The notes under the pieces: model-generated
Databases searched by the model: none
The model's input: only the letters and a program-made list of their open reading frames with translations
Told to the model about the DNA's origin: nothing
Program-made: the position numbers and the translations under genes
DNA from: Candidatus Baldrarchaeota archaeon
GTDB taxonomy: Archaea; Asgardarchaeota; Baldrarchaeia; Baldrarchaeales; DXJG01
DNA length: 32,000 nt
Assembly (NCBI GenBank): GCA_019056805.1
Contig: DXJG01000004.1
Location: 221,647-253,646 of the forward strand
Reading direction: 5' to 3'
In this document: one piece after another, positions 7,500 to 12,271 of the stretch
How positions within the stretch are numbered: position 1 is the stretch's first letter
How the letters are laid out: every line of letters starts with the position of its first letter

Positions 7500-8927
7500 T
7501 TATGTTATAGGTGTGAAATACATTTTTGGATGTGGCAAGGAAGTGTCAGCATTAATGTTGCAAATTGCCAATGGAGGGTGAACACCGTATGCAAATACGA
7601 TACCTTTTTTGCTGAAAATTCTGAAAACCATGTCTGCCATTTCTCTTAGCTTAGGAGTTATTTTCGTGTTTGGAAAAGTAACTCCAATGCATAAGTCTTC
7701 TTCAAACTTTATTCTAGAAATAATTTCTATAGCTATTTTTTCGGTATCTTCAGGGCCGAAATCAGCTTCTAATTTGTCAAAAGACAAATAAACCAGGACA
7801 TTTTCATTTAATTTTTCTTTAAAGCGGTCAATTTCTTCATTTATAGCTTCTAGAATTTTGTTCATAGAATAGTCCGTGTGAATTAGCCAAGAAGCCGTTT
7901 TTTTATGATTACCTCTGATGGGAGCAATGATCTTACAGTATTTTTCAACGATTTCCTTACCTACTAAGTTGGAGTAGAGGTTAATGAAATAGCGAGGACT
8001 AATGCTTTTGCAAGGTACTACAACTATACCTCTACCTTGAAGCATGAAATTCTCTACAATTGGTGATGTGATGTCAATAAGATGTTCGAAGGGAAATTCT
8101 CCTACAACTTCAATAAGTATAAAGCTTCCCCTTCTAACTCCGCCCATTTTTTTATCTAATTCTCGATTGCCGGTGCTAAATATACCGTTTTCATAAAACT
8201 TAGTTCCTTTTCCATCTTTTATTACGGGATGTGGTTCATAAGTACGTTTACGTCGTTCTACTGGCGAAAATCTATCAAAATATTTGAATTGTCCTTTGTG
8301 TAGCGTGAAATAATAGAACGGATTTAATATTTCAACTCCCCTAAGTTTTTCTATAATTAATTCTCTAAATATTCTTCCATCAATAAACGTTTTCTTAAAA
8401 GTTACAACTCCGTCACAAATATAATCTAAAGCTGTTTTCTCAGCTCTTTCAGTTATGATAATAGTCTTAATCTCAGCCCCCCTAACAGCGTCAATAATCC
8501 TATCGCATGTTTCTTCTACAGATAATCCTATTGTGGCAGCTACTGCATCAATACTATCCACAACAACTAAAGGTGAGCCTGAAGGCTTTTTTTCTTCAAT
8601 AACCATGTATAGTCCTTTTAGGAATTCTGGGAGAGATGAAAATCTTATTAGTTGTGGTACTTCCATTCTCTTTGGCACAATATTTTGTGTCGCATCAACA
8701 ATATTTTCAGGTGGTATGCTTTCTCTTATCCAAGGAAACTGACCGTAGAGTGATTTTGCATCAACTCTCGTAGAAAAGTATATTCCACAGCCCTTTTCAG
8801 CTTGACTGGCAACATAGTGCAAGCTGAAAATAGTTTTTCCGGTTCCAGGATCTCCTTTCACCAGTAAAGCAACATTTCCAGTAATATCAAAAAAATCTAT
8901 AATTTCAGACGGTATTGTTTTACTCAT
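7500..8927 (-). CDS. GvpD-like/RAD55 (KaiC-family) ATPase with a degenerate second RecA-like domain, paralog 1
   Basis: LLVKGDPGTGKT, YFSTRVD, VVVDSID, LDYICDGVV, IEKLRG. The second domain (GGVRRGSFILIE) lacks GKT. ATG at 8927 chosen; 8945 and 8951 are alternatives. Confidence 0.85.
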   Translation of the reverse strand: MSKTIPSEIIDFFDITGNVALLVKGDPGTGKTIFSLHYVASQAEKGCGIYFSTRVDAKSLYGQFPWIRESIPPENIVDATQNIVPKRMEVPQLIRFSSLPEFLKGLYMVIEEKKPSGSPLVVVDSIDAVAATIGLSVEETCDRIIDAVRGAEIKTIIITERAEKTALDYICDGVVTFKKTFIDGRIFRELIIEKLRGVEILNPFYYFTLHKGQFKYFDRFSPVERRKRTYEPHPVIKDGKGTKFYENGIFSTGNRELDKKMGGVRRGSFILIEVVGEFPFEHLIDITSPIVENFMLQGRGIVVVPCKSISPRYFINLYSNLVGKEIVEKYCKIIAPIRGNHKKTASWLIHTDYSMNKILEAINEEIDRFKEKLNENVLVYLSFDKLEADFGPEDTEKIAIEIISRIKFEEDLCIGVTFPNTKITPKLREMADMVFRIFSKKGIVFAYGVHPPLAICNINADTSLPHPKMYFTPIT

Positions 8928-9083
8928 ATTCTGTGTTTTAAGCATACGCATCCAACACGTTTATGGGGGGTCGTAAGTATAACGATTAACATAGCTAAGC
9001 AATATAAACATTTTGTCATCAAAATCTTGGAAAACCCAAACAGATTAAATAGAAAAATGTAAATTAAATTACAATTTTTGTTA

Positions 9084-9103
9084 ATTTGTTAATATTAACA
9101 AAT
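9084..9103. promoter_or_regulatory. Perfect 20-bp palindrome ATTTGTTAATATTAACAAAT, putative operator
   Basis: Self-complementary over 20 bp in the divergent intergenic region. Its TGTTA-N4-TAACA core recurs at 12414-12427. Confidence 0.55.
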
Positions 9104-10660: not shown

Positions 10661-10831
10661 AGAGACAAAAAATAATGTAGACTTTACCATGAAATATACA
10701 TTTTCTTGTTGTTACTTAAAACCTTAATTAAAGCAAAAAACAATTTTAACGCATATTTAGCTTTTATTATCTAAAAGCCAACAGTCACTAATTTAAATCT
10801 CACAGTAACTGCAAAATACGCTGAATACTTT

Positions 10832-12271
10832 CTACACTACTGGAATGAAGAAAGTACGTGGATGAGGCACTTTAAAATCGATATTAATATTATGTATTTC
10901 TGTTGGCGGATGCACACCGTATCCAAACAGAACATCCTTCTCACTAAAGATTCTATAAAAGTATTCAGCCATATCTCTAAGCTTCGCAGAAGAAGCCAAA
11001 CTTGAGAAACTCAAACCAAAGAGTAGGTCTTTTTCAAACTTTATTCTAGAAGTTATCTCCGAAGTTATCATTTCTGTTTGTTCTGGTCCGAACAAAGACT
11101 CTAAAAGATCAAAAGATAAAATTACAAGGACATTTTCACCTGTTACATCTTTAAAGTAATCAATTACCTTGTTAAGGCTTTCTAAAAATTTATCCATAGA
11201 CCTACTGGCTTTGACTAGCCAGGGAAACTGTCTCTCATTTTTTATTCTTGAAAAATCAATAACCCTGCAGTATTTTTCAAAAACTTTCTTACCTAAGAAT
11301 TTTGAGAAAACATCGTAGACGTATAGTGGATTTATACCTTTACACGGAACAATAATTACACCTCTACCTTGAAGAGCAAAGTTCTCAATAGGAGAACCTA
11401 TCAACTCGAAAGCAAATTCGCATGGAACTTTTCCTAGAGCCTCGATGAGAAAAAAGCTTCCTCTCCTAATTCCACCGATTATTTCATCTAACTGTTCGTA
11501 ACTGGAGCTGTAAAGGCCTTTTTCGTAGAATATAGTTCCTTTACCATCATTGACGACTGGATGCGGAGGATAACCTTCTTTTTCGTAAGGCCTTAAAACA
11601 GGGAAAGGCTCGAAATACTGGAAACGGCCTTCATAAAGTGTGTAGTAGTATATTGGATTATGTATTTCAACACCTCTAAGCTTTTCTATAATCATTTCCC
11701 TAAAAATTCTTCCCTCTATAAGTTTTCTTTTAAGTGTTACAACTCCATCGCAAATATAGTCTAAGGCTGTTTTTTCAGCTTTTTCAGTTATAATAATAGT
11801 TTTTATATTAATGCTTCTAATCGTATCAACGATCCTAGAACATGTTTCTTCTACAGATAATCCCACGACGTTCGCCACTGCATCAATACTATCAACTACA
11901 ACAATAGGTAATCCAGTAGTTTTTCTGTTTTCGAGAACCGTATAAAGCCCCCTAAGAAAATCGGGAAGAGAGGAATATCTTATTAGTTGTGGTACCTCCA
12001 TTTTTTTCGGAATTATGCTTTGAGTTGCATCCACAATGTTTTCAGGAGGTATTTTATCTCTTATCCAAGGAAACTGTTCATAAATCGAATTAGTATCAAC
12101 CCTAGTAGAAAAATAAACGCCAGTACCTTTCTTACACTTACTAGCAATGTACTGTAAGCTGAAAATAGTTTTTCCAGCACCAGGATCACCCTTAATCAGC
12201 AAAGCAGTGTTTCCAGAATTTTCAAGGAACTTAACTATCTCTAAAGGAACTGTTATATTCACGTCTATCAC
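10832..12271 (-). CDS. GvpD-like/RAD55 (KaiC-family) ATPase, paralog 2
   Basis: LLIKGDPGAGKT and YFSTRVD. Colinear with paralog 1 along its length (PPENIVDATQ, ALDYICDGVV, GVHPP). Confidence 0.85.
   Translation of the reverse strand: MIDVNITVPLEIVKFLENSGNTALLIKGDPGAGKTIFSLQYIASKCKKGTGVYFSTRVDTNSIYEQFPWIRDKIPPENIVDATQSIIPKKMEVPQLIRYSSLPDFLRGLYTVLENRKTTGLPIVVVDSIDAVANVVGLSVEETCSRIVDTIRSINIKTIIITEKAEKTALDYICDGVVTLKRKLIEGRIFREMIIEKLRGVEIHNPIYYYTLYEGRFQYFEPFPVLRPYEKEGYPPHPVVNDGKGTIFYEKGLYSSSYEQLDEIIGGIRRGSFFLIEALGKVPCEFAFELIGSPIENFALQGRGVIIVPCKGINPLYVYDVFSKFLGKKVFEKYCRVIDFSRIKNERQFPWLVKASRSMDKFLESLNKVIDYFKDVTGENVLVILSFDLLESLFGPEQTEMITSEITSRIKFEKDLLFGLSFSSLASSAKLRDMAEYFYRIFSEKDVLFGYGVHPPTEIHNINIDFKVPHPRTFFIPVV

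Follow-up and report, generated by a model that had tools for sequence, protein, structure and literature searches.

The 32,000-nucleotide stretch of Candidatus Baldrarchaeota archaeon contig DXJG01000004.1 analyzed here, which is termed the window throughout, encodes a membrane protein that unites seven transmembrane (TM) helices, a longin domain and a module with four cysteines, and its gene is flanked by two paralogous ATPases of the KaiC/GvpD type. Within the known longin repertoire of Asgard archaea, the combination of a seven-TM (7TM) domain, a longin domain and a Cys module is best read as a new architecture. The protein belongs to an Asgard-wide 7TM-longin family that bears no Pfam name and whose core is extended in Baldrarchaeia by the separately mobile Cys module of ~70 residues. 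The flanking ATPases are optional, confined to one genus and dispensable for keeping the 7TM gene. With moderate confidence we regard the protein as a membrane-anchored longin platform, i.e., as one paralogue of the Asgard-wide family, and the ATPases as its facultative neighbours.

Membrane domain, longin fold and cysteine module

An AlphaFold2 model of the 7TM-longin-Cys4 protein was built on 29 full-length homologues comprising the 7TM and the middle domain (predicted local distance difference test, pLDDT, 77 overall; predicted template modelling score, pTM, 0.70). Residue numbers given for this protein count from the TTG codon at position 9308 and not from the ATG at 9314; the latter is most likely the true start, because all orthologues begin with MLL or MTL at that position. 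The model features seven TM helices (residues 2-31, 34-58, 72-96, 103-119, 125-154, 158-191 and 195-219), ten-residue blocks of this membrane part have pLDDT values of 81-94, and the positive-inside rule places the N-terminus outside and the C-terminus inside the cell. The complete protein found no match in Pfam or NCBIfam, and a fold search with the membrane domain returned only generic 7TM folds. Assignment as a microbial rhodopsin was rejected, as TM helix 7 (195-219) is devoid of an internal lysine for retinal and carries only K219 and K220 at its cytoplasmic end. Close orthologues, as retrieved by a word-indexed search, form only nine clusters sharing 58-86% identity. Acidic residues conserved in all nine include E118 and E121 at the end of helix 4 and in the loop between helices 4 and 5 as well as E133 and E143 within helix 5, and E133 is also found in the consensus of the wider 7TM-longin family.

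The middle domain (residues 231-352) is modelled in the order beta-beta-alpha-beta-beta-beta-alpha-alpha. DSSP assigned strands to residues 231-237, 243-248, 282-286, 291-297 and 300-306 and helices to residues 265-277, 311-328 and 339-352, with pLDDT values of 81-93 across residues 280-350 and of 47-74 across residues 250-280. The five strands form a sheet in longin order from which the N-terminal helix is absent, and the domain as a whole superposes on solved longin domains. All top Foldseek matches are longin proteins, namely zeta-COP, the sigma subunits of AP-1, AP-2 and AP-3, sedlin/TRAPPC2, Sec22b and Ykt6, with target-normalised TM-scores of 0.63-0.71 for sedlin and Sec22b. Sequence matches below threshold agree with this assignment (Fuz_longin_1, Sybindin, Longin and Trs23 (3cue)): among 44 family members, Fuz_longin_1 was hit in six (best E-value 0.002) and Sybindin and Longin in one each, every E-value being at least 0.001. 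For the window protein itself, the Pfam longin families PF13774, PF19036 and PF04099 gave no match at E≤1. The model supports a cytoplasmic longin fold spanning residues 228-357 and lying outside any named Pfam longin family. An earlier note on this DNA, made from its letters, had proposed a longin-like domain at about residues 235-365 together with seven TM helices and a four-Cys tail; the first is borne out by the confident model and the Foldseek matches, and the other two hold in the model and in the orthologue alignment.

Behind the longin domain, Cys396, Cys407, Cys419 and Cys430 are invariant in the nine orthologues and are spaced C-x10-C-x11-C-x10-C within the motif DPL...RILALLxxYTS..GECP[YF]Y..SKCxLDP..R.WDCxG..F..G..C. 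Across 42 homologous segments the motif reads DPL..RIxALLxxYTS..GxCP[FY]Y..SKCxLDP...R.WDCxG..F..G..C, with three invariant cysteines and the third of the four replaced in one subgroup. A zinc ribbon or treble-clef Cys4 site was considered and discarded, given that its two CxxC (or CxxH) knuckles are absent and the spacing named above is present instead. The module has no match in Pfam, no sequence match in the PDB and no usable match in the ESM Atlas. A cytoplasmic metal site holding Zn or Fe-S is predicted as its likeliest role, and a putative tuning of the protein by metal or redox state via this module appears plausible.

A second gene of the same genome encodes the module as well. It lies at C9:575861-576823 and specifies a protein of 320 amino acids, and over its last ~80 residues this protein shares 65% identity with residues 367-445 of the window protein. 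Where other genomes encode proteins of similar size that end in a Cys module, these contain multiple TM helices and no longin domain. In addition, four soluble Cys-module proteins (P0049, P0062, P0092 and P0053) feature an N-terminal domain of ~235 amino acids that contains a Walker-B-like strand ("hhhhD") together with P-loop-like motifs in degenerate form ("GxGEK") and resembles a dead domain of the RecA/KaiC type. Comparison of this domain with the ATPase profile was not significant (hhalign E 0.12, probability 0.5%), and Pfam returned nothing.

Modularity and distribution of the 7TM-longin family

An exhaustive profile search with the window protein yielded 92 representatives that reveal how its parts are combined. 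Proteins of ~350 amino acids match residues 1-350, i.e., the core formed by the 7TM and longin domains. The segment around residues 230-352 also occurs as a free-standing protein (120-150 amino acids), at the C-terminus of major facilitator superfamily (MFS) transporters and inside larger proteins. Residues 365-437 recur as free proteins of 79-130 amino acids, at the end of other multi-TM proteins or after soluble domains, in one case after a soluble longin-like domain (P0057). Of the 81 Asgard genomes sampled, 77 contain matches to the 7TM-longin profile, mostly several each, and the genome from which the window stems contains eight longin-module genes of this family. The Cys module is present in 29 of the 81 genomes (10 of 37 genera). 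In clusters of structures with the same shape, 93-100% of the members are archaeal, most commonly from Promethearchaeota. Longin proteins of Asgard archaea have been described as soluble or as fused to GTPases, TRAPPC3/V4R or two-component domains (Tran et al., 2024, PMC10933270; Liu et al., 2020, preprint 10.1101/2020.10.19.343400); the word "transmembrane" is absent from both reports, and fusions to membrane domains are accordingly described in neither.

Fusions of the longin module to the C-terminus of MFS transporters (P0083, P0084 and P0090) speak for an alternative in which the seven helices form a small transporter or channel, instead of a receptor, whose transport state is regulated or reported by the longin domain; the protein would then be a "transceptor". 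The glutamates of TM helix 5, which are invariant in the nine orthologues and in the case of E133 extend to the family consensus, would suit such a function, as would an MFS gene as the upstream syntenic neighbour in Baldrarchaeia, but the sequence of the bundle resembles no transporter family. At the 40 loci L042-L081 from other Asgard families, ABC-transporter ATPases rank first among the neighbours of 7TM-longin genes and likewise point in this direction; with 6 of 72 neighbours, four of them carrying an oligopeptide-type C-terminal domain, this is nonetheless a weak signal that may stem from related genomes. Taken together, we consider a transporter or channel improbable. No family recurs among the immediate neighbours at the same 40 loci, and small GTPase families are not found among the 25 commonest neighbour families there.

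The two flanking ATPases and their linkage to the 7TM gene

The earlier note had described a middle gene flanked by two paralogous ATPases encoded on one strand, and all three genes are present where it had placed them, with their coordinates confirmed (Table 1).

Table 1. Positions of the features of the locus within the window.
Feature	Positions	Strand	Remarks
ATPase1	7500-8951	-	483 aa; two-domain ATPase of the KaiC/GvpD family
Divergent intergenic region	8952-9313	none	between ATPase1 and the 7TM gene
7TM-longin-Cys4 gene	9314-10660	+	448 aa counted from ATG 9314
Seven-helix membrane domain	9311-9964	+	AlphaFold2 model and invariant columns
Cytoplasmic longin-fold domain (predicted)	9989-10378	+	residues 228-357
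Cys module	10400-10618	+	residues 365-437; orthologue alignment
ATPase2	10832-12271	-	479 aa; paralogue of ATPase1, convergent with the 7TM gene
Second exact palindrome copy, TGTTA-N4-TAACA	12414-12427	none	
Truncated MFS transporter gene	6596-7423	+	N-terminal half only; member of the synteny block, outside the feature
Sugar-isomerase-like protein gene	12511-13746	-	411 aa; lies convergent to the 7TM gene in all related contigs

The 7TM gene and ATPase1 diverge from a spacer of about 360 bp, and the 7TM gene and ATPase2 converge across 171 bp. As the 7TM gene resides on the plus strand and both ATPases on the minus strand, the genes do not form an operon and co-transcription is impossible. 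In one study, contigs assembled from two samples span the junction between ATPase1 and the 7TM gene with zero differences, and marine metagenomes with other study codes contain identical fragments; the arrangement is therefore not an assembly artefact. The window has a GC content of 33-35% in a genome of 1.92 Mb, and it contains neither tRNA nor Rfam features.

ATPase1 and ATPase2 share 59% identity across 477 residues and both belong to the KaiC/GvpD/RAD55 group of RecA-like ATPases. They surpass the Pfam cut-offs for KaiC (PF06745; 66 and 76 bits, respectively, at a cut-off of 26.6) and GvpD_P-loop (PF07088; 67 and 72 bits at a cut-off of 24), and ATPase1 also passes the threshold for GvpD_bR2. 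The N-terminal domains contain Walker A (GDPGTGKT and GDPGAGKT) and Walker B (VVVDSID) motifs that can be read directly from the sequence. Residues 254-376 of ATPase1 align with a profile of the FlaH/KaiC type, and this second domain is degenerate, because the position of the P-loop reads VVGEFPFE. Each ATPase thus consists of one intact and one degenerate RecA-like domain, just as the earlier note had it. Circadian KaiC was rejected as an identity for both, as the second domain is without GK[ST] and NF006799 scores 38-39 bits at a cut-off of 408. Strong paralogues of the ATPases number nine among the ~1,930 open reading frames of the genome (at least nine copies in 1.9 Mb), and the occurrence of two of them around a single gene is therefore not due to chance. 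Local duplication explains the pair around the 7TM gene, and the two ATPases are genus-level duplicates within an expanded family of the KaiC/GvpD type.

With regard to functions of these ATPases, gas-vesicle families had no match among the neighbouring open reading frames scanned, and no gvp genes were found in the window; a genome-wide search for GvpA (PF00741) gave zero matches, with control genomes equally silent. Neither ATPase nor the 7TM protein matched a PADLOC defence family, and none of the roadblock genes (PF03259) of the genome is adjacent to any ATPase copy. Close relatives of ATPase1 are located beside MazE/PIN toxin-antitoxin genes and a DUF234 ATPase at locus L040, and at locus L041 two of them adjoin each other on opposite strands, both broken up into two frames. 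On this basis, the ATPase1 subfamily moves and decays readily.

The flanking ATPases lie within a block of genes that is shared by related contigs and consists of genes for a protein of 285 amino acids, a HerA-like protein (~1,000 amino acids), an MFS transporter, the 7TM protein, an isomerase-like protein of 408 amino acids and an XPD helicase. This block contains zero, one or two ATPases. Both positions, upstream and downstream of the 7TM gene, are occupied in the window. Only the upstream ATPase is present at L006, with a 7TM protein 86% identical to that of the window, and at L037-L039, the 7TM proteins of which group with L001 and P0006. Only the downstream copy is found at L002 (58% identity), where ATPase2 is inserted between the 7TM and isomerase-like genes as in the window, and six loci with 7TM proteins of about 63% identity (L001, L003, L004, L005, L007 and L008) have no ATPase. 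Positional orthologues of ATPase1, which likewise lie upstream in divergent orientation to the 7TM gene, are P0106 (L006), P0107 and the P0108 group (L037-39); that of ATPase2 is P0112 in L002. In a maximum-likelihood tree, the upstream ATPases (ATPase1, P0106 and P0107) and the downstream ones (ATPase2 and P0112) form clades with 100/100 support each, and P0108 groups with the upstream copies. The position-specific clades indicate positional orthologues and not repeated insertions.

Loss of the ATPase is recent and tolerated, since L001 without an ATPase and L037/39 with one encode nearly identical 7TM proteins. A genome of the same genus that is 82% complete (G004) has kept the 7TM orthologue and encodes no ATPase exceeding 36% identity to ATPase1. 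The ATPase clade accompanies the 7TM gene in G000 and G002, and G003 has neither of the two. When the open reading frames at the 40 loci of full-length 7TM-longin genes in other Asgard families were scanned with the ATPase profile (506 kb, with a reach of ~7 kb), not a single match was obtained; the same pipeline recovered every known ATPase copy in control loci. The earlier note had counted a non-conserved linkage against its own reading; this linkage is consequently absent beyond the genus, and within the genus it is patchy, i.e., non-conserved in part. A conserved sensor-ATPase module, which would show in linkage beyond close relatives, was not found.

These data bear directly on a second alternative, in which the 7TM-longin-Cys4 protein perceives a signal and uses its longin domain, its Cys domain or both to bind and gate an ATPase1-ATPase2 hetero-oligomer, which acts as a signalling hub of the KaiC type. 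Several observations speak for it: ATPases of type 1 are orthologous by position upstream in the window, L006 and L037-39 and those of type 2 downstream in the window and L002, ATPase1-type and 7TM genes share a divergent control region of 330-480 bp in three strain groups, and the ATPase clade and 7TM gene co-occur in G000 and G002 and are jointly missing from G003. Against it stand the opposite strands that preclude an operon, the six related contigs without ATPases together with their loss between near-identical strains, the 7TM gene of G004 unaccompanied by the ATPase clade, and the complete lack of such ATPases at the 40 loci of other Asgard families.

The control regions can be quoted on both sides. 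In the divergent region, a TATA-like box (TTTATAT) is located ~60-70 nucleotides before the start of ATPase1, and a palindrome, TGTTAATATTAACA, is found at 9087-9100, 149 nucleotides before the same start. The second copy precedes the start of ATPase2 by 156 nucleotides (Table 1). Exact TGTTA-N4-TAACA occurs just twice in the window, once before each ATPase at nearly equal distance, in favour of such a module, and L002 carries a copy with one mismatch at the same distance before its ATPase2 orthologue. However, the palindrome is absent before the ATPase1 orthologues at L006 and L037. It was also not found in 3.6-14 kb around seven other ATPase copies of the genome or in the 506 kb of other Asgard loci.

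A further parallel is provided by a second GvpD-type ATPase of the same genome (C9:484943-486349), which has an FDxxLGP protein on each side. This locus (L015, G000, C9:484292-487353) presents a two-domain ATPase between FDxxLGP proteins of 210 and 216 amino acids and thus constitutes a mirror image of the window, but the FDxxLGP proteins exhibit no profile similarity to the window longin family. A prediction of the complex between ATPase1 and residues 222-450 returned a score of 0.00; it was run without controls and is not evidence either way. Of the sensor-ATPase arrangement put forward in the earlier note, the domain architecture proved correct by model and fold matches, while the functional coupling, faced with opposite strands and patchy linkage, is weak. 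Overall, we consider a sensor-ATPase module rather doubtful.

Other members of the block were noted in passing. The MFS gene comprises an open reading frame of 275 amino acids in the window as compared to 396-420 amino acids in L002-L005, is split in L037-39 and encodes 173 amino acids in L007; being truncated, split or shortened, it appears to be decaying in several strains. The HerA-like ATPase (2981-6022) matches PADLOC mad8 (E 3e-19) and the XPD-type helicase (13772-15691) a type IV CRISPR-associated DinG (E 1e-77), in both cases probably owing to general family resemblance.

Proposed role and comparison with known systems

The membrane-anchored longin platform that we favour builds on observations of domain architecture and fold, of modularity and phyletic spread and of how ATPases were gained and lost. 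In this platform, the helix bundle with its conserved acidic residues in TM helix 5 would bind or sense something within the membrane or across it, the longin domain, by analogy, may present a docking surface for a cytoplasmic nucleoside triphosphatase (NTPase) or another longin or roadblock protein, and the Cys module probably holds a metal, either Zn or Fe-S. The flanking ATPase pair may count among the clients of the 7TM-longin protein in some strains and would not be required by it. Several points weigh against this reading. The longin assignment is structural only, because the Pfam longin models stay under threshold, the Cys tail was modelled at low confidence, and no experimental study of any member of the 7TM-longin family was found in the literature searched. 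Furthermore, true orthologues keep both ATPase positions even in L002, the longest-branched 7TM orthologue, and pure hitch-hiking would not obviously preserve such position-specific retention.

Proteins of the 7TM-longin and MFS-longin types might even constitute archaeal receptors or transceptors that relay membrane signals to cytoplasmic NTPases through longin docking, a wider interpretation that we regard as speculative and unlikely. If it were true, small GTPases would be the targets in most Asgard lineages and ATPases of the KaiC/GvpD type those in Baldrarchaeia, the Cys module would add a redox or metal input, and the system would parallel, in prokaryotes, the control of Rag, Rab and Arf switches at membranes by eukaryotic transporters and longin/roadblock platforms.

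By linking a longin domain covalently to a polytopic membrane domain, the family supplies specific membrane-bound baits with which NTPase partners of archaeal longins could be sought, and the Cys module is a second mobile domain without a name. The series of zero, one and two ATPases within one genus provides a natural test of communication between ATPases of the KaiC/GvpD type and longin domains, the sandwich itself being mainly of local interest.

Asgard archaea possess longin domains as part of their eukaryote-type protein repertoire. Longin domains dock partners in TRAPP, Mon1-Ccz1 and the small subunits of AP and COPI complexes, and longin SNAREs are anchored via a single C-terminal helix. 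Compared with Sec22b/Ykt6, sedlin/TRAPPC2, AP sigma and zeta-COP, the longin domain of the window protein differs in its position, as it sits C-terminal to a seven-helix bundle and is followed by the Cys module. The bundle itself shows no preference among established 7TM proteins: G-protein-coupled receptors, rhodopsins and adiponectin receptors all score alike against it, at a level that is usual for any helical bundle, and none is matched in Pfam.

Archaeal KaiC-like ATPases have been proposed as hubs of signal transduction (Makarova, Galperin and Koonin, 2017, mBio, as relayed in PMC13700489 and PMC6393860). The window ATPases resemble these proteins and GvpD, known from gas-vesicle clusters of haloarchaea, in exceeding the Pfam thresholds for both KaiC and GvpD_P-loop and in belonging to a paralogue family that is expanded in one genome. 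They deviate from clock KaiC, as their second ATPase domain lacks a P-loop and their score for circadian KaiC in NCBIfam is far under the cut-off. Unlike the archaeal KaiC-like hubs and GvpD, neither window ATPase is fused to a sensor, receiver or output domain.

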